Origin: Octopus vulgaris
Taxonomy: Eukaryota
Length of the DNA stretch: 64,000 nt
Assembly (NCBI GenBank): GCA_951406725.2
Contig: CATOCA020000001.1
Coordinates: 5,642,001 to 5,706,000 of the forward strand
Direction of reading: 5' to 3'
This document shows, one piece after another, positions 8,659-55,000 of this stretch. The translations under genes were made by a program, and so were the position numbers. Numbering within the stretch: position 1 is the first letter of the stretch; each line of letters begins with the position of its first letter. The notes beneath the pieces were generated by a model. It made no database searches and was not told where the DNA came from. It saw only the letters and a list, made by a program, of their open reading frames with translations.

Positions 8659-9069
8659 GCAACATCGTAAGATACCTGAGGAATGAGAGCCCAGGTTTGA
8701 AATTTCCCCAAAACACCTGATTAAGGGTGGAGGGTATATCAGCCGCAACGATGTAAATAAAATGTATATATATATATATATATAATTTCAACAATTGAGG
8801 GTAAAATTAATTAATTAATCAATTTCACCAAGTGTTCAGTATGCAAAGGGACCATTTAAGGCGAATTCAAATTATTACATTATATAAAAGGGCTTAGTAA
8901 AATAAATTACTTTGCCGCATACTGAACTCATTAGAAATAGCAGCTAAAAAAAACATTTATAAAACTATTTCTAATACTTAAAGAAAACCTCTCTCATATA
9001 GTGTTTGCTCAATTCAACTCACGGAAGTATGGGGGTAGAGACATTAAAAAATCAGATGCAAAGGTTATT

Positions 9070-9123
9070 TGAGAACGTACGTTTCAAGATTAGTCAAAAC
9101 TCGACATTTCTATCATCAGCTCA
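9070..9123 (-). ncRNA. Minimal type I hammerhead ribozyme motif
   Basis: TGAG-CTGATGA-(stem II AGA..GTCGA gtt TTGAC..TCT)-GAAA-C GTAC G-T-T-CTCA. Stem I is TGAG/CTCA and stem III is the palindrome ACGTACGT. Confidence 0.75.
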
Positions 9124-9631
9124 GAACTCCCTGGTTTGGATTTGAAAACACTGAAAGTGGGAGCATACTCCTTCGGCCTCCTATCGCTTTTGAAGATCCG
9201 CTCGTAACTAACAGTGCCAACAAACCCAAATATGCAAGCGAAGAATTTCTGCTCTCCCCTTTCCACCAGCGTGGGTTAAAATCAGCAAACACTATGCTTT
9301 TTTCGGTAAAATCCGAGGCATTTAAATAGAGAGAGATGAATTATAATTTCAACAATTGAGGGTAAAATTAATTAATTAATCAATTTCACCAAGTGTTCAG
9401 TATGCAAAGGGACCATTTAAGGCGAATTCAAATTATTACATTATATAAAAGGGCTTAGTAAAATAAATTACTTTGCCGCATACTGAACTCATTAGAAATA
9501 GCAGCTAAAAAAAACATTTATAAAACTATTTCTAATACTTAAAGAAAACCTCTCTCATATAGTGTTTGCTCAATTCAACTCACGGAAATATGGGGGGTAG
9601 AGACATTAAAAAATCAGATGCAAAGGTTATT

Positions 9632-9685: not shown

Positions 9686-10151
9686 GAACTCCCTGGTTTG
9701 GATTTGAAAACACTATATGAGAGAGGTTTTCTTTAAGTATTAGAAATAGTTTTATAAATGTTTTTTTTAGCTGCTATTTCTAATGAGTTCAGTATGCGGC
9801 AAAGTAATTTATTTTACTAAGCCCTTTTATATAATGTAATAATTTGAATTCGCCTTAAATGGTCCCTTTGCATACTGAACACTTGGTGAAATTGATTAAT
9901 TAATTAATTTTACCCTCAATTGTTGAAATTATAATTCATCTCTCTCTATTTAAATGCCTCGGATTTTACCGAAAAAAGCATAGTGTTTGCTGATTTTAAC
10001 CCACGCTGGTGGAAAGGGGAGAGCAGAAATTCTTCGCTTGCATATTTGGGTTTGTTGGCACTGTTAGTTACGAGCGGATCTTCAAAAGCGATAGGAGGCC
10101 GAAGGAGTATGCTCCCACTTTCAGTGTTTTCAAATCCAAACCAGGGAGTTC

Positions 10152-10205
10152 TGAGCTGATGATAGAAATGTCGAGTTTTGACTAATCTTGAAACGTACGT
10201 TCTCA
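10152..10205 (+). ncRNA. Minimal type I hammerhead ribozyme motif (inverted copy)
   Basis: CTGATGA at 10156-10162, GAAA at 10190-10193, GUU triplet ending 10201, CTCA at 10202-10205. Confidence 0.75.
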
Positions 10206-10402
10206 AATAACCTTTGCATCTGATTTTTTAATGTCTCTACCCCCCATACTTCCGTGAGTTGAATTGAGCAAACACTATATGAGAGAGGTTTTCTTTAAGT
10301 ATTAGAAATAGTTTTATAAATGTTTTTTTTAGCTGCTATTTCTAATGAGTTCAGTATGCGGCAAAGTAATTTATTTTACTATAGCCCTTTTATATAATGT
10401 AA

Positions 10403-31247: not shown

Positions 31248-34200
31248 CTGCAAAAGATACAATAAGAAATAATTGCAAAAGCATTAACGATAATATAAAA
31301 CCTGTGAACTGTAAATTATAGATCTGACAAAGAAATTATGTGAATAGACGAATGAGAAATACTGAAGAAACACGGAAAATAGAAGACATTGTTATCTGTT
31401 TCTAAAGAGTTTGAGAAAAATAAGAAACAAGTTGAAATAAAAGCTGGAATTGGAGAAAACATTTAAGGATCGAATAAAATTGAAAGTTACACATGAGAAA
31501 TCTTCTGGTAAACAACTGGCAGGAGAAGTGTTTGTGTGGGCAGCAGTATACGAAAAGCTCAAGAATCAACAAAGACTACCAATAGTTACACCATTTCATC
31601 TATCCATTCAAATGCTTTGCCCTCTCTTCATAGGAGGGTTATAAGGGTAGAGTCCTCAGGCACCTCCTTCATACGATTCTATCTAAAGTAACCTTGATTA
31701 GAAATTCTGAGAGAATTTCCAAGCGCAACCAATTGAAACTATGGTTTTTATGCAAAAATTTATTCTTGGTTTAGCCCCAGGTCTTCTGTCAGTTGGCTCA
31801 GCTCGATGAATCCCTCTTATGATTCTTTCCTGAGACATTTTAATCACATGCCGGTAGTATTGGAGCAGCTGTGACCTCTCAATGCAGAGAAGCAGTCGTT
31901 TGGCCTGGAGAGACACCCAAATTTCGAAGCTGCACGCGTTACTCCAGGCACTCTTCAGAGGAACTCAATTTCAGTCGTTTTGATAACATCCCATATTCAA
32001 AGAGTGAAATAGTCATCTGTGATGTGGTCCCTCCTATGATTAGTAAATAATTAAAGATTATCAAAATTCAGAAATATCTCGAAAGTGGGATATGACTTCA
32101 ACGGCACAAAGTAAAAATATAACACTGTTAGGTACATATCACATATTATAGAAGATACCAGCTGAAAAGGTAGTTTTGGAATACTGACTCCTAAAAAGGA
32201 ATTCCTTCACTGGCTGAAGGCCACAATTTCAAAAGAATCTCCTACAGGAGAGGCCCAAGAGTAAACAAAGCATTGGGAAGAGTTTTAGTTTGTAGGCAAT
32301 AACAGAACATCTACACCATACACCTACAACACTTGGGTCCTGAAAGAATCCCTGCATCCTCAAACATCTACATCATCTGGAAAGTTATCACAATTTATAT
32401 GCAGGGGAGAGAAAAGGGGTTAATAGGAATTCTATATGGTTTATCTAATGTACGCAATAGGTGCAGCGGTATCACAGGCAAGTTTACAGGGAGGACGGGT
32501 TAGGGTTGGGGAAGGAGTTTTTAAGTAGCAGATACACGGGATTAGTTTGTAGTAAGAACAAGTATGAAAGACATATAGTTTCTCTAACCTAAGAGACATA
32601 ATTAGAAGTGGGTGGGTGGGGGTCTATTCTCAAAGTGCAGTACTTTGAGGAAAAATGGGGTGGAAAATGTACAGGGAACTGTTACGTCTACTGGCAACTA
32701 AGGGATTCTGTCTCCAAATGAAGGAGAGATTGCATGAGGTGTATTTGTAAAGTGCAATGTTGCATTTAATGTAGAAGATGCAGGAAAACTGGCAAGAAAT
32801 GAGGTGAGCATACATCACTAGAAGTGTAATGTTAATGTGTTGAAAACCTGGGGTTAGGGAAAACTGGGTCTCAGAAGAATCTGTGATAGTGCCCAATATA
32901 GTATAGATTTAGAAGGGATATGGTAAATGAAATTTGGATAAAGAAGTGCCTGGAATTCAAGTGGAAGAAAACAAGCGATTAAACCTGACAAACAACCACA
33001 ACGACTGTGGGAGAAGTCGTCTGACACATACAAACTTGAAGAAATGAACGTAAGATGTTGATTATATTGGACTGGTGTTAATGGATTGATTTTTACCCCA
33101 GTATATGACTGGTACATTTTGTATGACTGCCAGAGAAACAACAAATTAGCAATGTCACAGATGATGTCCTCTCTTAATTTAGATAAATCATTTCTATCAG
33201 CTGACTGAGGGGATAATGTTACGATCTCTTGAGTCAGGGGTGAAAGGTTCAAATCTAGTCCCCCAACACAGCTCAATGTCCTGGTAAAGGCATCTCTCTT
33301 CTGGTTCAGTCTACGAACCACGATAGGGAGGTAAAGATATTGATGTAAAAAATAGGAATATTGTATAAATGATATTTTATGTTGTTAAACTTTCAGACAA
33401 GAGGAAATGGGATACTGTGATGTTCATGCCTTTCCAGTAAAGGAGAGTGAAATGATTTCAATTGATAAACAAAATCAAGTTGAGTTTGAATTTTCGGATG
33501 AGATTCTTTTTTTTTTAACGTGAGTTTCATTAATTTACAATACTGAGTTCAATCCAGCCATGGACACAGTCAACAATGGGGGACTGTTTTCTATAGAGAC
33601 TGGCACTATATATTAACCAGGGACTAAAGAACTACAATCAAAGAGAACACAGCATGTCACACATAATGCAAACTCTCGTGTTTAAAAAGGTTGCATTCGA
33701 TAATGTGGTCCTCTTCATCCAAGAGAAAGAATGATGTCACATCTGGAAACCTTCCCTCTTAACTCTGCCAGATTAAAACAGATATCTGCCTCAGCAACAA
33801 CAACAATAACAACCAATCTGTGAACTTTCCAAAAACGTAAACAAACTAAAACATTGTCATTAACTCACCTGTTTAGTCTTTAACACCATTATTCTTGAGT
33901 CCCCTTTTACAAACGACAATATTAACTCGACTGTATCTTCTAATTCAAATATTTTACACCTGTGCTGACCTCGGTGGATATTTTATGAAATTTCAGTGAT
34001 ATCTTTACTTTATAGCTAAACTTTCAATTGGAAACTAGGAATGGAATCTGTTCTCAGTCAAAAGTTTAACTGAAAGCAAAATTTATAGAAATCAATTAGG
34101 TATTTTATACTCACCAAGTTGCTGCCATTTACCGGCCAACTTTTTGGACACCCGATGTAGATGCTTCACCTCTAGCGTTAGTATATCTGAAATAAATGTT

Positions 34201-37200
34201 TCCACATTTTACACTTCATAGTATAATTTCCCTATCTCTGTTAATGGTTTATATCTTATTATTGTAAGACATTCCTATCATCAATGGCCAACTGCTGACC
34301 ACTATAGGTTTCGTCGACAGTTTTATACTTTCTACAGTGGTCTTATAAAATGGCTCAATATTTAGGTCCATAACAAAATAGACTGATCTTCCTAAACCTC
34401 CTTTTTCTATTAAGACAACCTTCTTGATCTATCAATGTTGCATTCATCTCATTTAATTATCACATGTTAACACCTTTTATTTCTTTTCTTTTTTATAGCT
34501 GGGCTAAACCTATGAGATAGCATTGTTCCCTCATCAGTAGACTTCACTAATCCAGTGTTAACCATGTTGGTCATAAATGCTCTTGACACAAACTCATGTC
34601 ATACCACTTGAACTAGGATCAACACACTTTTTAATTTTAACTATGCAACTCACAGTTCACCAGAATTTCATCTGATTCATAAAATATTTTAAGACTCCTT
34701 AATGAAACCGCTTTCATTCCAGGTGAGCAATGATTAGTTTTACAGAGGTGAAACAGAAAGTGATAACAAGTGTCCTAAAACACTGTATACTTGCACAAAA
34801 CATCTTTAACAACATGCAAATGTTTATACACAGATTATTGCAAAAGAAAAATATTTGAAAAGGTACAAAAGAAGTGATATTCAAGAATATATAAACAAGA
34901 TGGTGATATAGATCAAACTTCAAGCACCAAATCTTGTTTTTGCCCAGAAGTTTTGACTTGGCAAATGCTTATTGCCCATCCTCGGTTTCTGCAATGACAT
35001 CAATGCCTCTACTCTTATTAGACAATGTGGGATTGTAGCATCGTCCTCAAGTTAATGTTTTAACTTTTGGCATAGTTTCTCCTACTATTTTGAACCTTAC
35101 CTGTTTCTGTTGACCTTTGACATATGTCAGACCGCATCAAGTAGTTGCTTTAGACAGCATTCTTGACCAAGTAATTAGTCCATCCAGTCTATCCAGAACT
35201 AATTGTATAAACATTTGATCTCTTCTTCTTATTTTTATGTCATCCATAAATGCCTTCTTAAGTGATTTCCCTTGAGTAATTTCTTCTGATAAATCTGCCG
35301 ATCCCCATAAAAGCATCCCCATAACAAGCACAAACCAAGTAACGGATATTGTGCAATCTACAGCTATTCTAGTTTCAATGTTGGGCACACGAAAATCTTT
35401 TTCTAGTGCTTTTGCCACATTAAAATGTACTCAGGACCCTTTATAAAGTGGTTGGTGTTAAGAAAGGCATACTACCATAGGAAAGGTGGAATGTTTAAAG
35501 GAGATGTGTTTCTCAAGCAATCGAGGTGGACAGTAATTCTGAATAAGGACATGGATAGTGACCACCCAGCCAATTCGATGATGAAGACACTATAATCGAT
35601 TGCATTGTATCTTGCACCCAATCTTGAGGAGAGAGAAAGAGAGCAATTGTCTCAGCAGCAGACCAAAGTCTCCTACTGGGATAAACACAACGTTTAGGGG
35701 ATGTAATGATAGATTTACTATCAGTGAAAAAAAGAGAGTGTGTTCACACTTGTAACAATTTTCAACTTAGTCATCTCGTTAAAAATGACCGACAACAACA
35801 ACAACAATTAGGAAACTTATTAAAATGTACAACAAACAAGCTCTCTCATTATCTCATCTGTTTTTACCTTTAAACGACAAATTGCTTTCCTTTATTCCAA
35901 AGACAATATGAAGTCTGTTGTGTTTTCTAATTTAGCCATTTTACCAACAGCGCCAACACTGCTGGACATTTTATTAAATTTCAAATCAGTAATATCAATG
36001 GGCTTGTAGATGCATCCATAGTAAGAGAGAGAGAGAGAGAGAGAAATGACAATATGGCAACGAGATGATAGAAAGAGAGAATATTCCCCTTAAGGGGAGC
36101 GAACCGCTTCAGGTTTTATATTTTATCTCTTGTATTTTTCCTTATCGTATGAGATCTTTTTCCTGTGTCTCATGTTTCCCTATTTCTGTAAAATCCCTTT
36201 ATAGGATATTCCTGCATTTGTAGTAGAACAGAATTACTTTGTAGCTAACCATTCGAATGAAATATAGCAATAGAACCGCTTCTCAGTGATTCACACAAAT
36301 TATGTAGTTCAGGTGGAGGTAAAATTTGTAGAAGTCAATTAGATACAGTTATTTTATACTCACCAAGTGGCTGAGCCTCTGTCTGGGATGCCTTGTCTTC
36401 AACCTTTGGACGCACTGAAATAAACATTTCCAAGTTTTATACTTCATAGTAAAACTTCTTTATCTTTATGAATAATTCTGTATTTTATTATTGTGAGACA
36501 TTCATGTAATCAATGGTCAACTGGTGAGTAATATGGCTTTGGTCAGCATTTTTACACTCTCTACCATGGGACCGTGTAATATACCCAATATATAGGTCTA
36601 CTACTAAATAGACTGACCTTCCTCAATCTCCTCTCACTATTAAGACATCCTACATAATCTAACAACATTGCACTTATCTCATTTAATAATCCCTTGTTAA
36701 CACTGCTAATCTCTTTCTTATATTTAATCTAATCTATGACATGATTGTCCTCTCATCTCTAGACTTCACTAATCAACATTCTTCTCGTTTTCTACTTAAT
36801 TCCATGACAACCAAATTGGTCCTCAAAAATCGGACCACAAAACCATGACACATCGTTTCAGGTAGGATAAACATAACCACGCTCTCTTTTTTAAAGGTCA
36901 CTGTTGGCAATCTTTAATTTTAACTGACCACATCACACTTCATCAGAATATAATCTGATTAAGGAAATGTCAATCATCCTCCTTAATAAGCGACTTTTTT
37001 CAGGTGAACAATGATTAGTTCTACAACGGTGGAGAGGTAAGCGATAACAGGTATCCTGAAACACTGTACTTTTGTACAAAACATCCTTAACAACAAAATC
37101 ACTGTTCATGTACAACACATTATTACAAAGGGGTTATATCCAAATTGAGAACTAACAATTTATTCTGAAGAATATATAAATCGAACTGGAAACATGAAAT

Positions 37201-40200
37201 TGTGCATTTTCTTTAGTAGATTTGAATTATCAGTTGTTTTCTGTCCATCTTCAGCTTTGCCATGGTCTCACTACCCCAGTATGTATCAGTCAACAAGATA
37301 GCGTACCACCATCTTTAACTTTTGGTTTGTCTTTAACTTTTGGCATGAGTTCTCCTGCCGTTCGTAACTTCCTTTGCTCCAGCTGACCTCTCACAAATTA
37401 TAGACTGCATTACTTATTTGCTTGAAACCACATTCTTGACTAAGTACTAACTCTATGGAGTCTACTAACCAGAACTATTTGCATATCCTTTTAGTCTCTT
37501 GTTAGTATTGTTATGTCAGCCATGAATATCTTTCCGTTGAGCAATTTCTTCTGGACATTCTGTTAATCTAATTAGCATAACTATAAAGATCACCAACCAA
37601 CTGATATTGTGCAACCTACAGCTATTCCAGAACCCGAACCTGGCAGTCTTTTGTGAAATTCTATCCTATGAAACACATTTTGAAACTGTTATAGCATCTC
37701 ATCATCAGATCCTCAATCTCCTCCCATTTATGAAAGAAATTCCTTGTTTCCATCAACAATGTGTGTGGTACAGAACAATAAGCATTAGCCAGATCAAGCC
37801 ATACTACATCCGAATCCCTTTTATTCTTCTTTGCTTTTTATATGGTATCCCAGATTTAAAATACATGTTCTACACACACAGACATTCTCCGAATTCTAGT
37901 CTTCTGGACATTTTCAGTCGTATAACCATTATTTTGCTGACATGTAGCTGATTTCATGGCAAGTACACCCATGTAAATCTTGCCATTCAAGATTGAAATT
38001 GGCTTCAATTGGTCACTTAGTTCTGCATTAACTTACTTTGATGAATAAAATCCTTTTGTCTTGCACCATTCATCAATCAGTCCACCTTTATCCCACAACT
38101 CTCTAAATAGTAATTAATGCTTATAACACCTGGGCACAACATCTGTACACGTTCTATGGTACACAATCACCTCCCGTTGCAATCTCCGTTCTTGCCTTCT
38201 TCACTAAGCTTTATCGCAAAGCTGAAATATTTGATTACTGGTTTCATTGGACATTTCAATCCAAACATGAGCAGGTAAAGTTGACTTCGCTTGGGATCAT
38301 TGTATATCTGCCGTATATTCTTGTTCACTTCATCTTTAGTGCATTATAATCTCCCCCACTTAACATCGGCAAAAATATCCTAGTACCATCAGAAGGGTTC
38401 TTAAGGAGCTTTTATCTAAGGTGTTCACTATCCGTTCTCCTTTCAACCCGTCCGATGTCTCTTTGAATGTATTTGATTGTATTGTATCATACAGCCTCTA
38501 TGAAGTTTGAAGAAAGGGAAAGAGACAACGGTTTTCTGAGCAGCAAACCAACGTCTTCCACTGGAATAAAGACAATGTTTACTGGATGCAATGATAGATT
38601 TATTATCAGTGAAAAATATGAGGGTGGTCATATTTGGAACGCATTTCATTGTAAGTCTGCCAGATTATGAGCGACATCAGCTAAAATAACAACAATAACT
38701 TGTCAGTAAACATTTAAAAAATATAAAACAAACAAAACCTTTGTCATTACCTCACCTGTTAAACCACAACATATATTATTTGGCTGCTCCAAAAGAGAAC
38801 CTGAAATCTATTTCGCTTCTCATTTATCCATTTCACCAACCGTGCTAACCTGATTGGATACTTTATGAAATGTCAATAGTATCGATATGTTAAATAGTTT
38901 ACTGCTAAAACTTCCCATTGAAAGGTAAGAATGGAAGCTGATCTTTATCATTCTGATATCAAAATAAGCAGAGGATATACTTTACAGAAATCAATCTAGT
39001 GCTGTTATTTTATACTCAACAACAGGTTCTGCCAGTGTCTGTGTTTCTTTGTCTTCAAATGTTCGATTCTCTGAAATAAATATTTCCAAGTTTCAAACGT
39101 TATAGTAAAATTTCCTCACATGTACTTTTTCCCCAGGACATGGAGAAATATGCCACTCTGCTGCAAGTCCATGATCATTCTGATGATTAAAGAGATTTGT
39201 TTGATGTCCCTAGTTCTTGTATTGGTCGGCTGCTCCGTCACTGAAGTACAGGAGATGGTTTATGAATGGAAGTTCTGTCTTTATATGCGATATCACCCTC
39301 GTAATAAAAGCATGCACTGTGCTGTAGTCATGTTTCAAACAATCAGATATGACACAGATTGAAGTGCATTGTGGGTTTGAACCAGTCTTATAACAAATCG
39401 CGAATGGTGAATATTTGCCTGGGATTTGTTTCGATGAAACCCTTGCAGGGCGTCCTGTACTACAAAGCTATAATTTTTTTCTGTAAAGTCCAACAATACT
39501 ATTGCTTCACTTGATGTCAGGTCATCTTTTTGATGATTAAGGAAACAAGATTGGGCCTCTGCTATGAAATGATGTTGTTGTAGAGATTCAAACACACTTT
39601 CAGCGGTTTGAATGAAGGCATTCACTGGGGAAGTGAGTCATAAAGGAGCTGACCAGTCCACATGTGCCAACTGTTTGTGCGTTACTAAACCTCCAAGTGA
39701 TTAAAATACGTCTAATAAACGTTGTTCAAAAGGACAGGACTCACATAGGAGCAACATACAATCTCGATTGCTCACGGAAGAGACCATTTTGCCAAGCAAG
39801 TCTCTGTAGTCGTGACTACCAGGAATGGCAGCGGCGATACGTTTTGCATGTTGGTGATTCTCACAGACACATACTGAATGCATGCCTGAGGTGTACTGCG
39901 CATACACACCAAAAGTGTGCGGGTGAATTCACTAGGGGGTTTTCTCAATCTAAGCGTATCTCCCAAGATCCCGGTGTCCTGTTATTGCCATTGTGAGGCC
40001 AATGTTTGAAGGTCATACTTCATCACCTCATCCCATGTCTTCCTGGGTCTACCTCTTCTACAGGTTCCTTCTACAGTGAGGGAGTGGCACTTCATCACAC
40101 AGCTGTTTTCATTCATACGTAACACATGACCATACCAGCACAGTAGCCTCACTTGCACACCACATTTGATGCTTCTTATGCCCAACTTTGTCGTGATTGC

Positions 40201-43038
40201 ATACTGACGTTACACATCCAGCGAATCATACTAACTTCATCTCTTTCAAGCCTACGCATGTCCTGAGCATCCATGGCCCATGTTTCCCTGCCCTGTAACA
40301 TGGCTGTTCGCACACATGCATCATGCAGTCTACCTTTCACCCTGAGTGATAGACCTTTAGTTGCCAGCAGAGGTAGGAGCTCCCTGAACTTTGCCCAGGC
40401 TATTCTTACTCTAGTCTCTACACACGCAGAGCAATCACACTCACTACAGACTTGATCCCCTAGGTAACAGAAGCTATTAACTACTTCTAGTTTCTTCCCC
40501 TGGCATGTGATGGAATCTGTTTTCTGTACACCTTCAGTGTTTATTGCCCCAGAGCATTTGCCACACACAAAAACTATTTTCCCGGTTAACTTTCTTTGAT
40601 ATTGCGGCATCTTTTATGTGTCCATAGCTTCCCCGGTTACATCGTGTGGAGTTTCTACCCTCTCCATTTCTACAGATAGAGCAGGGCCATCTACCTGAAA
40701 TGGGTTGTGATTTGACAGCCTTCCTACTAACAAGGACTTTGGTTTTGACTAGGGTTTTGACTAAGGCCCTTCAATTCTAGACTTTGCTCCCACACCCTTA
40801 ACTTTGTCTCTAGTTCTGGCAGTGACTTGTCTGTAAGAGCAAGGTCATCAGCATAAAGAGGCTCCCAGGGGCAGAGTGCCTTGAATTCCTCTTTTATTGT
40901 CTGGAGGACTATAATGAATAGGAAAGGGCTGAGGACGGATCCTGGGTGAACCCTGATGTGTATTTGTAATATGGAATGTTTCACAGAGTATAGAGGATGT
41001 ATGAAAACTGTTAAGAAATGAAGTGAGCATACTTCAGAAGAAGTGTAATATTAATGTGCTGAAGTCCCGGAGCAGAGATGAGCTGGAAGCAAAACTGGGG
41101 TTTAGAAGATTCAGAGATAGCACACAAGAGACGAGATGGTACAGATATGGGAGGAGTATGGAAGATAAAAGTTAGATAAAGAAGTGTCAGGAGATCCAAG
41201 TAGAAGGGAACAAGACGTTAAACCTGTGGGAGTAGTCAAATTTGAATGCAACAATCAAGTCAGAACTAAAACCAGAGGTGAAACACTCAGAAAACTGTGC
41301 CTCTTTTAGCATTAATATCATCTAAAATGTAACAAGAGTGAGAAAAAGAATGACTATATGGATGGTAAATGTTGTTCAAACAATGTAATAAGTGTATATT
41401 ATATATAGTTACAAACAAGGATTTGTGAGATCAAGTCACACAGGGAACTCATATTTAATTGCTATCTTTATAATTTATGTCAACACCAATGTTTTGTTTA
41501 AATGCAAACAGATGTTCACCGTTCAATACTAAATTTAATATTTAATCAACGTTAATGATCATTATACTTACAATCTTAGAGATTTGATTTTTAATTTCTT
41601 TAATTTATAACAAAGTTATTCTGACCTGAGACATTCAGGGTACGTACCTAAACAACATATCCTGACAGACATCTGGCTACATAACAATAACAACAACAAT
41701 AACCTATGAGAAAACTTTGGAAAGACCTTAGTAGCAAAAGAAACAAAAACTTTCTCGTTACCTCACCTGTTTACAAATAAACAACAAAATGTTTTAGTTC
41801 TCTGTCCTAAAAGACATCATTAACTCTATAATGTCTTCTTATTTAACCATTTTACCAACCACGTTAACCTTGATTTTATGAAATTTCAGTGGAATATTTA
41901 ATAGAATCCTTTTTACAGCTAATGCGGAAACTAGGGATTGACGAGCGATTATAAGAGTTGAAGAGGCCCTGTAGTAAGGTGAGGATTGGCAATGAGTATA
42001 GTGAAGAATTCCGGATAGAAGTAGGAGTTCACTAGGGATCATTCCTAAACCCCTCGTTTTCATCATAGTCCACCATGCAATAACAGAAATGACAAATCAA
42101 AAGCAATTCAAGATCGAAATCAAAATGGAAATTGTAGTTGTGACCGATGCCAGTGCCGCCTGACTGGCACCTGTTCCTGTGGCACGTTATAAGTACCATA
42201 GAAGCATAGGTCCTTGTCACTGCCGCCTGACTAGTTCCCTGTGCCGGTGGCACGTAAAAAGCACCATCCGAACGTGGTCGATGCCAGCCCCCACACCGGC
42301 TGGCTCCTGTGTCGGTGGCACGTAAAAGGCACCCACCACACTCTCGAAGTGGTTGGCATTAGGAATGGCATACATATGTGGAAACCTTGCCAGATCACAT
42401 TGGAGCCTGGCGCAGCCTACTGCCTTGCCAGTGAAATCGTCCGACCCATGCCACGATAAGAAACGGATGTTAAATGATGATGATGATGAGTTCTGTGACC
42501 AAATGACAAAATTAACTCTATTGTGTCTTCTAATTTGAACATTATTACCAACAGCATTAACCTCAATGGGTGTTTCATAAACTCTCAGTAAATCGATATC
42601 TTTAATTCAATTATTATACAGATAATCGTTCAATTGGAAAATAGGAATGGAAGCTGTTTTCAGTTATTCTTTCGAGCACAATATACTCGGGGGAAGAAAA
42701 CCTTACAGAAATCAATTGGGAACTATTATTTTATACTCACCAATTGCCTGAGATGCAGCCCCTAATTCCTGACATATAGCCTCTGTTTGTACACACCTGT
42801 CTTCAAACTTTGGAGCCTCTGGAATAAATATTTCCAAGTTTTACATTTAATAATAAAATTTCTTTATCTTTATTTTTATTAAACTCTATCTTTTTATTGT
42901 GAGACATTCAATTCCTGTCGTTAATGGTCAAATGTTGACCACTATGGTTTTGGTCAATATTTCTGTACTTTCTACAGTGGTCCCATGTAGTAGCTCAATA
43001 TGTCCACAATAAAACAGACTAACATTTCTAAATCCACC

Positions 43039-43075
<37 letters not shown>

Positions 43076-44229
43076 AAAACACATTAAATATTCTAACAAT
43101 GTTGCAATTATCTCATTTAATTAACACTTGATGACAGTTTTCTCTTAGCATTGTCTTTCTTTTCTTATAACTGCCAAATCTATGGCATGGCACTGTCCTC
43201 TCATATCTAGAATTCACTAATCAACATTCCTCTCTAATTAAGTAAAACTGCACCCATAAAGATGTCCTTTATATGCATACCCTCCAACCCGCACACAATC
43301 TGTCCCCTAAAAAACATCTCCACAAGCCAAATTCCATACACCCTTCCCCAACATGATCCCTAACAAGATATAAAATGTAATGTGAGGGTACACGATGTTC
43401 CTATGACAAAATATGTTAACATTTAAGATTCAGAGATAGCACACAAGAGACGAGATGGTACAGATATGGGAGGAGTATGGAAGATAAAAGTTAGATAAAA
43501 ATAAAGAAGTGTCAGGAGATCCAAGTAGAAGGGAACAAGACGTTAAACCTGTGGGAGTAGTCAAATTTGAATGCAACAATCAAGTCAGAACTAAAACCAG
43601 AGGTGAAACACTCAGAAAACTGTGCCTCTTTTAGCATTAATATCATCTAAAATGTAACAAGAGTGAGAAAAAGAATGACTATATGGATGGTAAATGTTGT
43701 TCAAACAATGTAATAAGTGTATATTATATATAGTTACAAACAAGGATTTGTGAGATCAAGTCACACAGGGAACTCATATTTTATTCCTATCTTTATATTT
43801 TATGTCAACACCAATGTTTTGTTTAAATTCAAACAGATGTTCACCGTTCAATACCAAATTTAATATTTAATCAACATTAATGATCATTATACTTATACTC
43901 TTAGAGATTTGATTTTTAATCCTTTTAATTTATAACAATGTTATCCTGTGGTTTGTTGCAAGTTCTACCTGGCTGGTTCCCTGTGCCGGGGGAAAGTAAA
44001 AAGCACCATCCGAACGGTGTCAATGCCAGCCCCAACCTCAACTGGCTCCTGTGTCGGTGGCACGTAAAGAGCACCCACCACACTCTCGGAGTGGTTGGCA
44101 TTAGGAATGGCATACATATGTGGAAACCTTGCCAGATCACTTTGGATCCTGGCGCAGCCTACTGCCTCTCCAGTGAAATCGTCCGACCCATGCTACTATA
44201 AAAACGGACGTTAAACGATGATGATGATG

Positions 44230-44278
<49 letters not shown>

Positions 44279-47200
44279 GTTCCATGACCAAATGACAATA
44301 TTAACTCTATTGTGTCTTCTAATTTGAACATTATTACCAACAGCATTAACCTCAATGGGTATTTCATAAATTCTCAGTAAATCGATATCTTTAATTCAAT
44401 TATTATACAGATAATCGTTCAATTGGAAAATAGGAATGGAAGCTGTTTTCAGTTATTCTTTCGAGCACAATATACTCGGGGAAAGAAAACCTTACAGAAA
44501 TCAATTGGGAACTATTATTTTATACTCACCAATTGCCTGAGATGCAGCCCCTAATTCCTGACATATAGCCTCTGTTTGTACACACCTGTCCTCAAACTTT
44601 GGAGCCTCTGAAATAAATATTTCCAAGTTTTACATTTAATAATAAACTTTCTTTATCTTTATTTTTATTAAACTCTATCTTGTTATTGTGAGACATTCAA
44701 TTCCTGTCGTTACTGGTCAACTGTTGACCATTATGGTTTTGGTCAATATTTCTGTACTTTCTACAGTGGTCCCATGTTATAGCCCAATATGAAACAATAA
44801 AACAGACTAACATTTCTATATCCACCCTCACTTCTCACTCCCTCTCTCTCTCTCTCTCTAAAAACACATTAAATATTCTAACAATGTTGCAATTATCTCA
44901 TTTAATTAACACTTGATAAGAGTTTTCTCTTAGCTTTGTCTTTCTTTTCTTATAACTGTGCCAAATCTATGGCATGGCACAGTCCTCTCATCTCTAGAAT
45001 TCACTAATCAACATTCCTCTCTAATTAAGTAAAACTGAGCCCATAAAGACATGTCCTTTATATGCATACCCTCCAACCCGCACACAATCTGTCCCCTAAT
45101 AAACATCTGCACAAGTCAAATTCCATACACCCTTCCCCACCATGATCCCTAACAAGATATAAAATGTAAGGTGAGGGTACACGATGTTCCTATGACAAAA
45201 TAAGTTTACATTTCAGACATACAAATGTAAGAGAGTTAATGAATTATAGCTTATTAATTATCATGATAATTGGGTATATATGTGATACAATGGCACTGTG
45301 CTTGACGGTGCAATACTAGATATCAATATAGATTGTATATAATCTGAGTAAAGAACATATAACCGTCATTACTATGAATATGATTGTGTCTCAGCACAGC
45401 TAATATTATGGTAGTTCCATGAGCAAACGAAGAAAGATATAACCAAGTCCACTGCCAAATACTAATGATTAATTCATTTCCTGGTCAAATAACAATGACT
45501 ATCTTTCATTAAATAATTTGAACGCAACGATGTCAGTGTGCACACAAGGCAGAGTGAAGAGGCCTGAGAGAAGTGTTAGACATAAGAAGCATCAGATGTG
45601 GTGTACAGGAGAGACAACTGCACTGGTATGGTCATGTGTATGGATGAGGAGAGCTGTGGGAAGAAGTGTTACACCCTAACAGTGGAAGGAACCCGTGGAA
45701 AGGAGTGGCCCAGGAAGACAGGGGATGACGTAGTGAAACGACCTTCGAACGTTGGGCCTCACAGAGGTAATGGCAAGAGACAGAGACCTGTAGAAATATG
45801 ATGTAATTAAGAGGACTCGGCAAGTGAAGTGAGATCAGAGCTGTAGCATATACCAGTGGCGCATAACCAGCCCTTTTTAAAAGTACCCTTGAATCACAGA
45901 GTGATAAGTTGCGCTTGAGAAGAATTTCCGAGTCAAGTAAAACCAAAAACCAGAAATCACAAATCAAAATCAAATCAAGATCGAAATCAAAATGCAAATT
46001 GTAATCATGGCTGATGCCAGAGCCGCCTGGCTTCCACCCGTGCCGGTGGCACGTAATAAGTACCATTCAAACATTGTTTGTTGCCAGTGCCGCCTGACTG
46101 GTTCCCTGTGTCGGTGGCACGTAAAAAGCACCCACCATACTCTCGGAGTGGTTGGCGTTAGGAATGGCAAACATATGTGGAAACCTTGCCAGATCACTTT
46201 CGAGACTGGCGCAGCCTACTGCCTTGCCAGTGAAATCATCCAATCCATGCCACCATAAAAAAACGGACGTTAAACGATTGTGATGTTGATGATGATGATT
46301 AGTTCCATGACCAAATGACAAAATTTACTCTATTGTGTCTTCTAATTTGAACATTATTACCAACAGCATTAACCTCAATGGGTATTTCATAAACTCACAG
46401 TAAATCGATATCTTTAATTCAATTATTATACAGATAATTGTTCAATTGGAAAATAGGAATGGAAGCTGTTTTCAGTTATTCTTTCAAGCACAATATACTC
46501 GGGGGAAGAAAACCTTACAGAAATCAATTGGGAACTATTATTTTATACTCACCAATTGCCTGAGATGTAGCCCCTAATTCCTGACATGTAGCCTCTGTTT
46601 GTACACACCTGTCCTCACACTTTGGAGCACCTGAAATAAATATTTCCAAGTTTTACATTTAAAAATAAAATGTCTGTATCTTTATTTTTTTAAACTCTAT
46701 TTTGTTATTGTGAGACATTCAATTCCTGTTGTTACTGGTCAACTGTTGACCATTATGGTTTTGGTCAATATTTCTGTACTTTCTACAGTGGTCCCATGTA
46801 ATAGCCCAATATGTCCACAATAAAACAGGCTAACATTCCTAAATCCACCTCTCTCTCTCTCTCTCTCTCTAAAAACACATTAAATATTCTAACAATGTTG
46901 CAATTATCTCATTTAATTAACACTTGATGACAGTTTTCTCTTAGCATTGTCTTTCTTTTCTTATAACTGTGCCAAATTTATGGCATGGCACAGTCCTCTC
47001 ATATCTAGAATTCACTAATCAACATTCCTCTCTAATTAAGTAAAACTGCACCCATAAAGACATGTCCTTTATATGCATACCCTCCAACCCGCACACAATC
47101 TGTCCCCTAAAAAACATCTCCACAAGCCAAATTCCATACACCCTTTCCCAACATGATCCCTAACAAGATATAAAATGTAAGGTGAGGGTACACGATGTTC

Positions 47201-50200
47201 CTATGACAAAATAAGTTTACATTTCAGACATACAAATGTAAGAGAGTTAATGAATTATAGCTAAATATTTATCTTGATAATTGGGTATATACACTACCGT
47301 CAGAAATTAATTAGCACCCTTGATTTGCTCACCATGAAGCATGGTGGGGGTGGTCTGATGGTGTGAGGAGCGTTCAGCTACAGTTGTGTTGGGTGGCTCT
47401 ATGCCGTCGAAGGCAACATCAACGCAGCAAAGTACGTTGAGATAGTACGGGATACCTCTTTGGTGGCGAGGAGTACGTGCTGGCCAGTCACCTGACCTGA
47501 ACCCTATTGAGAACCTCTGGAGTCGATTGGGTAGGGATTTGAATGTGCAGCAATACAGGAACCGACACGAGCTGTTTGGGGCACTTCTTGCTGCATGAGG
47601 GGCCATCCCTGCACAGTACCTGCAGGCACTCATAGAGAGCATGCCGACCCGCGTAGCAGCTGTCATTGCTGCCAAAGGAGGAGCAACAAGATATTGACTA
47701 AACTTCACGATTAATATCAATTATGTGGTGTGCTGGGATATGTTTTAATAAATTTTTGATTAAAAACGAGTTCGTTTCTGATAATAAGTTAATTAAATTA
47801 AGAAAATGTAAGAAAATGTAGAAATTTGAGAAGTGCTAATTAATTTCCGACGCAAGTGTATGTGATAGAATGGCACTGTGCTTGACGGTGCAATACTAGA
47901 TATCAATATAGATTGTATATAATCTGAGTAAAGAACATATAGCCTTCATTACTATGAATATGATTGTGTCTCAGCACAGCTAATATTATGGTAGTTCCAT
48001 GAGCAAACGAAGAAAGATATAACCAAGTCCACTGCCAAATACTAATGATTAATTCATTTCCTGGTCAAATAACAATGACTATCATTCATTAAATAATTTG
48101 AACGCAACGATGTCAGTGTGCACACAATGCAGAGTGAAGAGGCCTGAGAGAAGTGTTAGACATAAGAAGCATCAGATGTGGTGTACAAGAGAGACAACTG
48201 CACTGGTATGGTCATGTGTATGGATGAGGAGAGCTGTGGGAAGAAGTGTTACACCCTAACAGTGGAAAGAACCCGTGCAAAGGGGTGACCCAGGAAGACA
48301 GGGGATGATGTGGTGAAACGACCTTCGAACGTTGGGCCTCACAGAGGTAATGGCAAGAGACAGAGACCTCTGGAAATATGATGTGATTAAGAGGACTCGG
48401 CAAGTGAAGTCAGATCACAGCTATAGCCTATACCAGTGGTGCATAACCAGCCCTTTTTAAAAGTACCCTTGAATCACAGAGTGATAAGTTGCGCTTGAGA
48501 AGAATTTCCGAGTCAAGTAAAACCAAAAACCAGAAATCACAAATCAAAATCAAATTAAGATCGAAATCAAAATGGAAATTGTAGTTGTGACCGATGCCAG
48601 TGCCGCCTGGCTGGCACCCGTGCCGGTGGCACGTAATAAGTACCATTCAAACATTGTTTGTTGCCAGTGCCGCCTGACTAGTTCCCTGTGCCGTTGGCAC
48701 ATAAAAAGTGCCTTCCGAACGTGGACAATGCCAGCCCCAACTTCAACTGGCTCCTGTGTCGGTGGCACGTAAAAGGCACCCACCACACTCTCGAAGTGGT
48801 TGTCGTTAGGAATGGCATACATATGTGGAAACTTTGCCAGATCACATTGGAGCCTGACGCAGCCAACTGCCTTGCCAGTGAAATCGTCCGACCCATGCCA
48901 CTATAAGAAACGGACGTTAAATGATGATGATGATGATGATGATTATGATGATGATGATTATGATGATGATGATGATGATGATGAGTTCTGTGACCAAATG
49001 ACAAAATTAACTCTATTGTGTCTTCTAATTTGAACATTATTACCAACAGCATTAACCTCAATGGGTATTTCATAAACTCACAGTAAATCGATATCTTTAA
49101 TACAATTATTATACAGATAATCGTTCAATTGGAAAATAGGAATGGAAGCTGTTTTCAGTTATTCTTTCGAGCACAATATACTCGGGGGAAGAAAACCTTA
49201 CAGAAATCAATTGGGAACTATTATTTTATACTCACCAATTGCCTGAGATGCAGCCCCTAATTCCTGACATATAGCCTCTGTTTGTACACACCTGTCTTCA
49301 AACTTTGGAGCCTCTGAAATAAATATTTCCAAGTTTTACATTTAATAATAAAATTTCTTTATCTTTGTTTTTATTAAACTCTATCTTTTTATTGTGAGAC
49401 ATTCAATTCCTGTCGTTACTGGCCAAATGTTGACCATTATGGTTTTGGTCAATATTTCTGTACTTTCTACAGTGGTCCCATGTAATAGCCCAATATGTCC
49501 ACAATAAAACAGACTAACATTCCTAAATCCACCCTATCCCTCTCTCTATCTCTCTCTCTCTAAAAACACATTAAATATTCTAACAATGTTGCAATTATCT
49601 CATTTAATTAACACTTGATGACAGTTTTCTCTTAGCTTTGTCTTTCTTTTCTTATAACTGTGCCAAACCTATGGCATGGCACAGTCCTCTCATCTCTAGA
49701 ATTCACTAATCAACATTCCTCTCTAATTAAGTAAAACTGAGCCCATAAAGACATGTCCTTTATGTGCATACCCTCCACCCCGCACACAATCTGTCCCCAA
49801 ATTCCATACACCCTTCCCCACCATGATCCCTAACAAGATATAAAATGTAAGGTGAGGGTACACGATGTCCCTATGTCTAAATAAGTTTACATTTCATACA
49901 TACAAATGTAAGAGAGTTAATGAATTATAGCTTATTAATTATCATGATAATTGGGTATATATGTGATACAATGGCACTGTGCTTGACGGTGCAATACTAG
50001 ATCTCAATATAGATTGTATATAATCTGAGTAAAGAACATATAGCCTTCATTACAATGAATATGATTGTGTCTCAGCACAGCTAATATTATGGTAGTTCCA
50101 CGAGCAAACGAAGGAAGATATAACCAAGTCCACTGCCAAATACTAATGATTAATTCATTTCCTGGTCAAATAACAATGACTATCTTTCATTAAATAATTT

Positions 50201-51984
50201 GAACGCAACAATCAAGACCAAAGGGTGAAACACTCAGAAAACTGTGCCTCTTTTAGCATTAATATCATCTAAAATCTAACATTTGTGAGAAAAAGAATGA
50301 CTATATGGATGGTAAATGTTGTTCAAACAATGTAATAAGTGTATATTATATATAGTTACAAACAAGGATTTGTGAGATCAAGTCACACAGGGAACTCATA
50401 TTTAATTGCTATCTTTATAATTTATGTCAACACCAATGTTTTGTTTAAATGCAAACAGATGTTCACCGTTCAATACTAAATTTAATATTTAATCAACGTT
50501 AATGATCATTATACTTACAATCTTAGAGATTTGATTTTTAATTTCTTTAATTTATAACAAAGTTATTCTGACCTGAGACATTCAGGGTACGTACCTAAAC
50601 AACATATCCTGACAGACATCTGGCTACATAACAATAACAACAACAATAACCTATGAGAAAACTTTGGAAAGACCTTAGTAGCAAAAGAAACAAAAACTTT
50701 CTCGTTACCTCACCTGTTTACAAATAAACAACAAAATGTTTTAGTTCTCTGTCCTAAAAGACATCATTAACTCTATAATGTCTTCTTATTTAACCATTTT
50801 ACCAACCACGTTAACCTTGATTTTATGAAATTTCAGTGGAATATTTAATAGAATCCTTTTTACAGCTAATGCGGAAACTAGGGATTGACGAGCGATTATA
50901 AGAGTTGAAGAGGCCCTGTAGTAAGGTGAGGATTGGCAATGAGTATAGTGAAGAATTCCGGATAGAAGTAGGAGTTCACTAGGGATCATTCCTAAACCCC
51001 TCGTTTTCATCATAGTCCACCATGCAATAACAGAAATGACAAATCAAAAGCAATTCAAGATCGAAATCAAAATGGAAATTGTAGTTGTGACCGATGCCAG
51101 TGCCGCCTGACTGGCACCTGTTCCTGTGGCACGTTATAAGTACCATAGAAGCATAGGTCCTTGTCACTGCCGCCTGACTAGTTCCCTGTGCCGGTGGCAC
51201 GTAAAAAGCACCATCCGAACGTGGTCGATGCCAGCCCCCACACCGGCTGGCTCCTGTGTCGGTGGCACGTAAAAGGCACCCACCACACTCTCGAAGTGGT
51301 TGGCATTAGGAATGGCATACATATGTGGAAACCTTGCCAGATCACATTGGAGCCTGGCGCAGCCTACTGCCTTGCCAGTGAAATCGTCCGACCCATGCCA
51401 CGATAAGAAACGGATGTTAAAGATGATGATGATGAGTTCTGTGACCAAATGACAAAATTAACTCTATTGTGTCTTCTAATTTGAACATTATTACCAACAG
51501 CATTAACCTCAATGGGTGTTTCATAAACTCTCAGTAAATCGATATCTTTAATTCAATTATTATACAGATAATCGTTCAATTGGAAAATAGGAATGGAAGC
51601 TGTTTTCAGTTATTCTTTCGAGCACAATATACTCGGGGGAAGAAAACCTTACAGAAATCAATTGGGAACTATTATTTTATACTCACCAATTGCCTGAGAT
51701 GCAGCCCCTAATTCCTGACATATAGCCTCTGTTTGTACACACCTGTCTTCAAACTTTGGAGCCTCTGGAATAAATATTTCCAAGTTTTACATTTAATAAT
51801 AAAATTTCTTTATCTTTATTTTTATTAAACTCTATCTTTTTATTGTGAGACATTCAATTCCTGTCGTTAATGGTCAAATGTTGACCACTATGGTTTTGGT
51901 CAATATTTCTGTACTTTCTACAGTGGTCCCATGTAGTAGCTCAATATGTCCACAATAAAACAGACTAACATTTCTAAATCCACC

Positions 51985-52021
<37 letters not shown>

Positions 52022-55000
52022 AAAACACATTAAATATTCTAACAATGTTGCAATTATCTCATTTAATTAACACTTGATGACAGTTTTCTCTTAGCATTGT
52101 CTTTCTTTTCTTATAACTGCCAAATCTATGGCATGGCACTGTCCTCTCATATCTAGAATTCACTAATCAACATTCCTCTCTAATTAAGTAAAACTGCACC
52201 CATAAAGATGTCCTTTATATGCATACCCTCCAACCCGCACACAATCTGTCCCCTAAAAACATCTCCACAAGCCAAATTCCATACACCCTTCCCCAACATG
52301 ATCCCTAACAAGATATAAAATGTAATGTGAGGGTACACGATGTTCCTATGACAAAATAATGTTAACATTTCAGACATACAAATGTAAGAGAGTTAATGAA
52401 TTATAGCTTATTAATTATCATGATAATTGGGTACATATGTGATACAATGGCACTGTGCTTGACGGTGCAATACTAGATATCAATATAGATTGTATATAAT
52501 CTGAGTAAAGAACATATAACCTTCATTACTATGAATATGATTGTGTCTCAGCACAGCTAATATTATGGTAGTTCCATGAGCAAACGAAGAAAGATATAAC
52601 CAATCCACTGCCAAATACTAATGATTAATTCATTTCCTGGTCAAATAACAATGACTATCTTTCATTAAATAATTTGAACGCAACAATCAAGACCAAAGGG
52701 TGAAACACTCAGAAAACTGTGCCTCTTTTAGCATCAATATCATCTAAAATCTAACAAGAGTGAGAAAAAGAATGACTATATGGATGGTAAATGTTGTTCA
52801 AACAATGTAATAAGTGTATATTATATATAGTTACAAAGAAGGATTTGTGTATTCAAGTCAAATTCAATTTCTGATTGTATATTTTGTATAAACACCAATA
52901 ATTTGTTTAAATATAAACAGATGTTCACGGTTCAATATTTAATTTTACATTTAATAAAATTAAGTTCATGATGAATATTCTTATACAGAGTTAACATTTA
53001 ATTATAATTTTCTAATTTGCAACTACAAAATGTATTCTAACCAGAGACATTGAGGGTACACAACCCCAGAAAATACAAAATATTACGACAGACATCTGGC
53101 TACATAACAACATCAAGAATAACCTATCAGAAAACTTACGAAAAATCTTAGTAGAAAAACAAACAACTATTTTATTAACTCACGAGTTTACACCTAAAAA
53201 ACATAAATTATAGTTCCATAGAAGACAATATTAACTCTATTGTGGCTTTTAATTTATCCATTTGACCAAACATGTTAAACATGACTTTATGAAATTTCAG
53301 TAATATTTTTAATACAATTACTTTAGAGCTAAACTTTCAAATGGAAATTAGAAATGGGATCTGTTCTCCACCATTCTAATAAGCAAAATAGCTGAGGTGA
53401 ATGTAAAATCTATAGAAATTCATTAAGATCTCTAATTTTAAACTCATCAACTGTCTCTGCCACAGTCTGCACTCCCTTCTCTTCAAACTTTGGACTCTCT
53501 GAAATATGTGTTTCCAAGTTTTATAGTTATTTATAGCACAATTTCTTCATATTTATTAATAATCTATATTTTATTATTGAGAGACATTCATATCATCAAT
53601 GGCCAACCAGCGATCATAATGCTTTTGGTCAATATTTTTATACTTTCAACCGCGGACCCATGTAATAGCCAATATTTAGCTCCAAAACGAACTCTAGTTG
53701 ATCTTTGTAAATTTCCTCTTTCTGTTAAGATATCCTACATAATCTAACAATGCTGTAATTATATCACTTAATTATCACCTAATAACAGTTAATCTGTAGG
53801 TTTTGGTTTCCTTGCTTATATCTATGCCAAATCTATTGCATTTTCAAAACCCTGATCTTCACTAACAACCTGTTTGATTCCAGTGTCAACAAATTTATTC
53901 ATCAAAGATATAACAACAAACACATGTCACAACCACTTCAAGAAGGAGAAACATACACCTAATCTCTTTGTTAAACATTGTTGCTGATAATCCCTAATTT
54001 TAACTTCACAGTTCACCAGAATGTCATCTCATTCAGGATATATTTGAAGGTTTCATGATCTGGTTGCTTGACAAACAAAACTGTCTCTATTAGCCTTAAT
54101 ACCCACCAATTACAAACATAACAACATGGAATTGTGTGTTAAAGTCTCTCAAACTAGTGACAATAATTTTACTCCTTTAAAATATTCTACTAAATCTAAT
54201 ACTTTACCAAAGATGACACTGATGTCCTTGTAAGTACTGTTGTATTTAATTATCTTCTAATAACTCATAATTATCTTCTAATAACTCATAATTATTTATA
54301 GTGTTGATGGAGATTTATTGATACTTCAGTTACTCACTAATTATCTTGCAGAATCCTCCATTATCTTTATGTTGCAGACTACAACCCTCTTGAAGTGTGA
54401 CATGTTTCCTACTTGGATAAAATCAATGTTTAGTGGATGTAGTGTGAGAGATATACTATTACAGAGAACAGACACTAGGAACACCTTTTATCATAAATCT
54501 GCCAGATTATGGCAGACCTCTGTCTACATAACAACATGAATCATATTATTCTACACAATAAGGGCAATGGGACAAGCAGGACAAACAGACAGATCAGCAA
54601 AGAATATTCTTACCAACTCGACCTCTGCTTGTTACAGGTTTCAAACACCTCAGGCATCGTTTAAGTGCAACGTTTGAACATTCTTCACATGTCAGAAGGT
54701 GTTCACAGGGATGAACTTTTGTTGTGGCCTCTTTATTTCTGCACAACAAACATCTGTGGACAAAACAGAAACATCCAATCAATAACATTCATTTATAATA
54801 AGTATTATATTATTTACATGTTCGGAATAGAGAATATTATAAGATACATCAGTAACTACCAAGAGTAGAGCAGAAACTCTTCTTTAAATATTTACATACA
54901 TACTGCATTTTGTGTAGTTAAATGACGCAGAAACACACACACACACATACAAGTATACACACTCATGCATACATACATTGATGAATGTTTGTCTTGATCC

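Follow-up and report, generated by a model that had tools for sequence, protein, structure and literature searches.

Multivalent clients of the dynein light chain LC8 and symmetric exons that carry short motifs (PMC3632108) are both known kinds of arrangement, as far as the accessible parts of the reports on them go. In ASCIZ, for example, activity varies with the number of LC8 motifs, and the length of the linker sets heterogeneity (PMC5963919; PMC10046861), while in MIB1 dimerization and ubiquitin transfer both belong to the coiled coil-RING3 portion alone, ANK-RING1-2 being inactive and for the most part monomeric (bioRxiv 10.1101/2024.03.01.582834). Here, we describe a gene of Octopus vulgaris on the minus strand of a stretch of 64,000 nucleotides (assembly GCA_951406725.2, contig CATOCA020000001.1, positions 5,642,001 to 5,706,000; hereafter the window). 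We hold it probable, from its sequence, that this gene is one of a large octopus family of ankyrin-RING-death-domain genes and is intact, with tandem in-frame micro-exons that derive from the first exon of the death domain and each likely supply one LC8 site. The feature itself is real, with six live sites and not eight, and its derivation from a domain exon, one exon to each site, is unusual.

The gene and its array of micro-exons

The reading of splice sites over the window and the next 10 kb gave one open frame of 588 amino acids (aa) from 15 minus-strand exons, with six QT sites and with AG/GT bordering each of the introns; its product has the order ankyrin-RING-linker-death domain. The linker carries DRCVQTE five times, in steps of 26 residues from Q to Q, followed by DKASQTE once. 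The original prediction had placed the array between a RING and a death domain, which holds for the RING, given a Pfam match above the cut-off (zf-C3HC4_3) in addition to the Ank matches, and more weakly for the Death match, which lies below the cut-off when exon 2 is taken alone; PF00531 is carried by full-length relatives of this gene.

A common acceptor context occurs nine times on the minus strand from 53498 to 34186, in eight QT copies and in the 72-nucleotide (nt) exon at 34186-34115. The eight copies are exon-like, paralogous, 51 or 78 nt long and in phase 1-1, and encode the peptides first reported for them, but GT donors stand in six only, which reduces the valency from eight to six. 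GTGAGT follows all five 78-nt exons and the exon at 36414-36364, whereas the 51-nt position is followed by ATGAGT at 53448 and by TTGAGT at 39020, and the alternative GTs close to these two copies (named here after their first positions, 53498 and 39070) give exons of 35, 47 or 50 nt, all out of frame. As two of the eight copies have no in-frame GT donor, six can be spliced in frame, and the letters of the donors indicate that the 53498 and 39070 copies are probably dead (unspliced) in this gene.

The five 78-nt copies are spaced 1.8-2.7 kb apart in duplicated units that are 87-99% identical, as expected from the units of approximately 2 kb that had been proposed. The QT pair, said to be kept in all eight, is indeed present in the listed peptides, but these amount to just four independent types, given that five are near-identical, and losses of Q and T are frequent in the family's other genes (VKT, VKK, VQM, VQS).

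Fit of the linker sites to the LC8 motif

In the available parts of the sources, the LC8 consensus is given as [DS]-K-x-[TVI]-Q-[TV]-[DE] (PMC3078936), and the favored flanks are a polar residue at -4, K/R at -3 and D/E/P at +2, with SDKGVQTP, EDKGVQCE, EDKATQTL and RHQSVQTE among the validated binders (PMC6607443, including Table S4). Each of the six live sites agrees with five of the six consensus positions, and their TQT-like anchors ([TVIS]-Q-[TV]) read VQT five times and SQT once, both of which are found among validated binders. Both DRCVQTE and DKASQTE also follow the flank rules, with no internal proline, and both dead exons have a hydrophobic residue at +2. Relatives such as DKGVQTD agree at all six positions and are close to SDKGVQTP and EDKGVQCE. 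The predicted resemblance to LC8 sites was thus confirmed at the level of the motif.

The death-domain exon 1 types match 0-2 of the six positions; among 28 live micro-exon types, 12 match 5-6, three match four and 13 match 1-3. In 42 family proteins, a relaxed motif was counted 46 times among 2,546 linker residues and not once among the other 14,661, with two occurrences in a background of 346,175 residues (138 long proteins); knowledge of the octopus peptides had guided the choice of the pattern, and its copies are not independent. The linker is predicted to be disordered, as originally supposed, given that residues 265-321 of the paralogue P0013 are modeled with no secondary structure and with a predicted local distance difference test (pLDDT) score below 50. 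The genome also encodes an intronless, near-canonical LC8 with 83 of 89 residues as in DYNLL2. It seems fairly probable, then, that the linker sites bind LC8 and that the product of this gene is a multivalent LC8 client with one exon per site.

Origin of the micro-exons from death-domain exon 1

The derivation of the micro-exons was missed by the original prediction: by sequence comparison, they are duplicates of death-domain exon 1, with which they have the acceptor, the donor and the register in common. The exon 1 unit (33910-34552) is 65-67% identical to each of the 78-nt units over approximately 720 nt, and 34005-35372 is 65% identical to 36234-37630 over 1,471 columns. Within the exon, identity to death-domain exon 1 is 45-51% for all six QT exon types of 72 nt, in comparison with 27-28% for codon shuffles, and each of 33 types scores above its shuffles when the first 12 codons are compared. 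One in-register pair is, for example, TLKLEEKCLQDVAKLLGVGWQQV in the death domain and SAMCEDKHVQTDSQLLETASQQL in a QT exon. The exon at 34186-34115, taken at first for the boundary of the array, is the next exon after 36414, but it belongs itself to the family of duplicated units and codes for the first part of the death domain.

The tree of the copies needs two label changes between death-domain exon 1 and the micro-exon groups, and is unrooted, so the direction from domain exon to motif exon would follow from the age of the death domain; the death domain of the family also matches that of ankyrin-1. Some death-domain exons already carry K and Q in register. In the first 12 codons of death-domain exon 1, omega did not differ from 1 in 16 representatives (p 0.62), which suggests fast evolution even in the folded domain.

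Splicing and isoforms

Inclusion of the micro-exons in transcripts, which had been predicted, is indicated by exon joints in RNA-like contigs; the runs, none of which is recorded as RNA, consist of contigs that were guessed to be RNA, with reads that could stem from paralogues or other individuals. The RING exon is joined to a 78-nt exon in four of four runs, and, among the joints listed, a 78-to-78 joint occurs in one of the four (X9) and a joint from a 78-nt exon to a 39070-type exon in X8. The joints from 36414 to 34186 and from 34186 to exon 2 (31247) occur in three of the four (X8, X9 and X7), and are absent from X15, a large DNA-like run. For the 53498 copy, no joint was found among those listed, and the contigs across it retained the intron on either side. 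In X8 and X9, the joined exons of the 39070 type bear the letters of the GT-donor subfamily, and the X7 joint could not be assigned, so these joints may stem from copies other than the window's own 39070. That all eight exons are live was rejected on the donors (ATGAGT, TTGAGT) and on these subfamily letters.

Public isoforms differ by whole micro-exons, with lengths of 481/464/447/430 aa in one O. sinensis gene and of 563/545/528 aa in O. bimaculoides. Together with the variation among the paralogues described below, this bears out the expectation that exons of symmetric phase would allow changes of copy number and isoform in whole-exon steps.

At 39020, the contigs of X8 show a loose end, in which a 39070-type exon is joined downstream to a different exon, similar to the 66-nt APTRGK exon of the paralogues. 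This 66-nt type is a further linker exon without QT.

The family across the octopus genome

Candidates for the RING exon (81), the 78-nt exon (107) and death-domain exon 2 (51) were found genome-wide, with 40 of each scored. The paralogues were surveyed in 80 stretches of 10 kb, located 3' of the 39 other scored RING matches and around four more micro-exon clusters, which yielded, with the window included, 162 exon-like matches, four of them junk. Of 45 gene rows, 28 could be traced from the RING to death-domain exon 1, and 17 were omitted as partial or because exon 1 was missed by the donor pattern. The number of live intact anchors per traced gene was 0 in 13 genes, 1 in six, 2 in three, 3 in one, 5 in two, 6 in two and 7 in one.

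Exons with VQT are common to the O. vulgaris family and O. bimaculoides, and all relatives with a species name come from Octopus vulgaris, O. sinensis or O. bimaculoides, in searches that are weak for distant relatives. Word-index searches returned Octopus proteins only, which is weak evidence of absence elsewhere; a representative search with full-length P0013 was dominated by ankyrin proteins and recovered few family members, from Octopus wherever named; and a fold search returned only ankyrin folds. The family, with at least 40 scored RING copies, seems undescribed in the literature searched, and public gene models split or truncate it. The public Octopus vulgaris models P0008, P0031 and P0117, which match pieces of the present gene (window 31042-59726) at approximately 100%, split it and keep just two 78-nt exons.

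Among the paralogues, the G at +1 of the micro-exon donor has been lost in three ways, to ATGAGT in 14 copies, to TTGAGT in four and to CTGAGT in four, with the peptide still open, and no loss at +2 was found among the exon-like matches. Paralogues at C27:23661225-23662221 and C29:24097161-24098275 hold 7-8 micro-exons with a period of 145-190 bp, so the same exon has been amplified there by a second, much shorter unit; in the C29 array, the QT anchor is gone (VQS, VKV, VKA). In five other paralogues (L033, L035, L039, L041, L043), death-domain exon 2 follows the RING exon after approximately 1.7 kb, with neither exon 1 nor a micro-exon detected. At C31:7289058-7309086, a paralogue is followed by a second module of micro-exon, death-domain exon 1 and exon 2, which may be an alternative 3' end.

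Selection on the motif and alternative explanations

The tree used for counting changes left out the motif columns, and gene conversion among copies could distort the counts; omega was obtained from codon models by grid profile; dead-donor exons, the 48/57/66-nt types and frameshifted copies were omitted. In 28 representatives, the motif codons had an omega of 0.4 (0.25-0.75), below 1 at p 0.007, and the other seven codons one of 0.9 (0.55-1.4), with change counts that gave p 0.15 for the anchor and 0.065 for the five motif codons. In 78 unique live copies, the anchor codons changed as often as their neighbors (p 0.57). The constraint on the motif thus seems modest at depth, and none is visible among recent copies. 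The claim that QT is better conserved than the neighboring codons, for which a test had been set in advance, did not reach significance (p 0.07-1.0).

A number of results weigh against the reading of the micro-exons as LC8 sites. The difference in omega between motif and neighbors was not significant in the 28 representatives (p 0.074), and in the 78-copy set the motif had 0.6 vs 0.8 for the neighbors (p 0.36), with the three anchor codons at 0.8, the same as the neighbors. No live intact anchor is found in 13 of the 28 traced paralogues, the change from Q to K recurs in several subfamilies, and the enrichment of the motif in linkers mostly reflects one or two origins followed by duplication, and not many independent gains. 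The contigs can neither phase isoforms nor show the number of 78-nt exons per transcript, and that the runs are RNA is itself a guess. In the accessible part of one survey, moreover, seven of 19 LC8 peptides predicted by position-specific scoring matrix bound, and VDRSIQTV is a listed non-binder (PMC6607443).

Many of these observations would also be expected if the micro-exons were near-neutral by-products of an unstable duplicated unit that act as a spacer, with an LC8-like motif inherited from an ancestral copy of the death-domain exon (E-E-K-x-L-Q-D-V) and now functionless. The neighboring codons evolve at about the intron rate (omega of approximately 0.9), the anchor codons are unconstrained among recent copies, Q to K changes, dead donors and frameshifted copies are frequent, the genes with no intact site are many, and the K and Q already in register in some death-domain exons would provide the starting point. 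Inheritance fits poorly, however, with the gap between the 0-2 consensus positions of the death-domain exons and the 5-6 of 12 of the 28 live micro-exon types, with the different permitted residues that divergent subfamilies hold at -1 (V, T, S) and +2 (D, E), with a motif omega below 1 at depth, and with the VQT kept in O. bimaculoides. We consider this explanation rather unlikely.

The repeats might also be functional for another partner, as S/T-Q kinase sites, as a TRAF-type motif (TCQE in the 78-nt exon) or as new ubiquitin-acceptor lysines created by Q to K. Both SQ and T-x-Q-E, which we take to be consensus motifs of these kinds, are present in 78-nt exons, a death-domain adaptor would plausibly meet TRAFs, and the Q to K change is recurrent. 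The SQ and TRAF motifs are nevertheless limited to some exon classes, whereas the xQT core keeps a fixed register across the 51-, 72- and 78-nt classes; a different partner seems quite improbable. It is more improbable still that the array is largely an assembly artefact, with haplotypes or collapsed repeats joined in tandem over a true gene of one or two such exons, given that, while 41239-43428 and 50196-52374 are 99.0% identical over 2,191 nt and near-identical paralogues are numerous on this 12-Mb contig, the other units are 87-94% identical, 78-to-78 joints exist in RNA-like contigs, public O. sinensis proteins hold three or four tandem copies (P0019), and paralogues have one to six copies in a shared order.

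The RING and the relationship with Mind bomb

The C-terminal ankyrin region resembles MIB1 ANK (E 1e-31, query 14-209), and the RING retains its zinc ligands. The N-terminal MZM/REP (MIB_HERC2) region is absent, given that the frame begins at an ankyrin exon, as in the RefSeq protein P0005, and that none of 10 PF06701 matches is on contig C31. A single RING is followed by the linker and the death domain, with no multiple C-terminal RINGs and no coiled coil-RING3. What had been called a MIB2-like E3 ligase has an ankyrin region of the MIB type and a RING, but is not a member of MIB1/2.

In active RINGs of the IAP type, the terminal arginine of the C-P-x-C-R end matters. The RING of the present copy ends in CLRCL, in comparison with CPICR in cIAP1, and seven of 42 family proteins end in CP-x-C-R. 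In the accessible part of the MIB1 study, the RING proline contacts the E2 (bioRxiv 10.1101/2024.03.01.582834). Given the lack of both the proline and the arginine of active IAP-type RINGs, ligase activity of this copy is doubtful, and its residues suggest that it is likely an adaptor and not a ligase, while the CP-x-C-R paralogues may be active ligases.

Proposed mechanism

A few changes in helix 1 (EEKCLQDV-like to EDKxVQTD/E) would have given the first duplicate of death-domain exon 1 its LC8 motif, and the motif exon would then have been amplified by unequal recombination, with sites rapidly gained and lost through Q to K changes, donor loss and skipping. In the protein, LC8 dimers would bridge two parallel chains along the linker, as in ASCIZ and KANK1, and so pair two death domains and two RINGs, with the number of exons per gene, allele or isoform setting the avidity. 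In this copy, the output would be paired death domains, i.e., a pre-dimerized adaptor, and not ubiquitin transfer.

More tentatively, a death-domain exon may have been converted into an LC8-motif exon that forms a dial of dimerization (0-7 sites), tunable genetically or by splicing, in variable ankyrin sensors, which would replace the coiled coil of Mind bomb and set the threshold of death-domain signaling. If so, one protein family would provide a natural LC8 valency series of 0-7 equally spaced sites, in which the effect of site number on LC8 complexes, an open question, could be tested without design, and a short linear motif born from part of a folded domain would be traceable with its source exon still adjacent.

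Other features of the window

The positions of the exons and exon-like copies are collected in Table 1. Fragments that we take to be of reverse-transcriptase-like retrotransposons lie at 27776-28243 (+), 56562-57062 (-) and 39985-41050 (-); two of the three are intronic with respect to the gene. An ankyrin-region intron also contains a long (TCA)n array, at 63309-63999. Between 300 and 22800, segments are repeated in direct or inverted orientation, as seen from repeated translations (e.g., 299-1135 vs 21869-22782, and 9048-9340 vs 9935-10227).

Table 1. Exons and exon-like copies of the octopus gene, with positions in the window unless stated otherwise.
Feature	Position	Strand	Basis
Three further ankyrin exons, including start codon	3.3-9.2 kb past window end	-	
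Ankyrin-region exon, 37 nt	62816..62852	-	gene model
Ankyrin exon, 210 nt	59517..59726	-	Pfam Ank matches; gene model
Last ankyrin-region exon, 176 nt	57735..57910	-	gene model
C3HC4 RING exon, 140 nt, end CLRCL (cIAP1: CPICR)	54614..54753	-	Pfam, gene model
51-nt pseudo-exon, EKGVQTV, donor ATGAGT, likely unspliced	53448..53498	-	RING joins straight to 78-nt exons
78-nt micro-exon 1, DRCVQTE	51687..51764	-	acceptor/donor, joints, gene model
78-nt micro-exon 2, DRCVQTE	49236..49313	-	acceptor/donor, gene model
78-nt micro-exon 3, DRCVQTE, diverged variant	46553..46630	-	acceptor/donor, gene model
78-nt micro-exon 4, DRCVQTE	44530..44607	-	acceptor/donor, joints, gene model
78-nt micro-exon 5, DRCVQTE	42741..42818	-	acceptor/donor, joints, gene model
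51-nt exon, DKETQTL, donor TTGAGT, likely dead here; live in GT-donor paralogues	39020..39070	-	
51-nt micro-exon, DKASQTE, live	36364..36414	-	three runs with a joint to 34186
Death-domain exon 1, 72 nt, same duplicated-unit family as the micro-exons, their likely source	34115..34186	-	
Death-domain exon 2, with stop codon	31042..31247	-	Pfam, joints, gene model

Comparison with known systems

A literature search, with most subscription literature outside its reach, found no account of these octopus genes, nor of LC8 arrays with one exon per site or of any RING-death-domain protein with an LC8 ladder, in line with the original view that the architecture is undescribed. As far as the accessible text of each source goes, ASCIZ/ATMIN (PMC5963919; PMC10046861), KANK1 L2 (bioRxiv 10.1101/2025.07.16.665182) and Nup159 likewise hold several xQT-type motifs in a disordered linker. 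In the octopus proteins, by contrast, each site has its own symmetric exon, the sites number 0-7 across paralogues and isoforms, their spacing is a regular 26 aa, and they would stem from the exon of a folded domain. LC8 binding is proven for ASCIZ, KANK1 and Nup159, whereas for the octopus sites it is predicted. In the available text, the words exon and splice are absent for KANK1 (10.1101/2025.07.16.665182), and exon and isoform for ASCIZ (PMC5963919).

The disordered proteins with tandem symmetric exons (PMC3632108) likewise have symmetric, alternatively spliced and tandemly duplicated exons with short motifs in disorder, and the part of that survey available mentions neither LC8 nor dynein, and does not deal with motif exons that arose within a gene from one of its domain exons. 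Finally, with MIB1/MIB2 (bioRxiv 10.1101/2024.03.01.582834; PDB 8V0E), the octopus protein has in common a MIB-type ankyrin region followed by a C3HC4 RING, and public records are named MIB1/MIB2-like, but, in comparison with the accessible account of those ligases, it is without MZM/REP, has one RING only, has no coiled-coil-RING3 and ends in a death domain; an LC8 ladder would sit at the position of the dimerizing coiled coil of MIB1.

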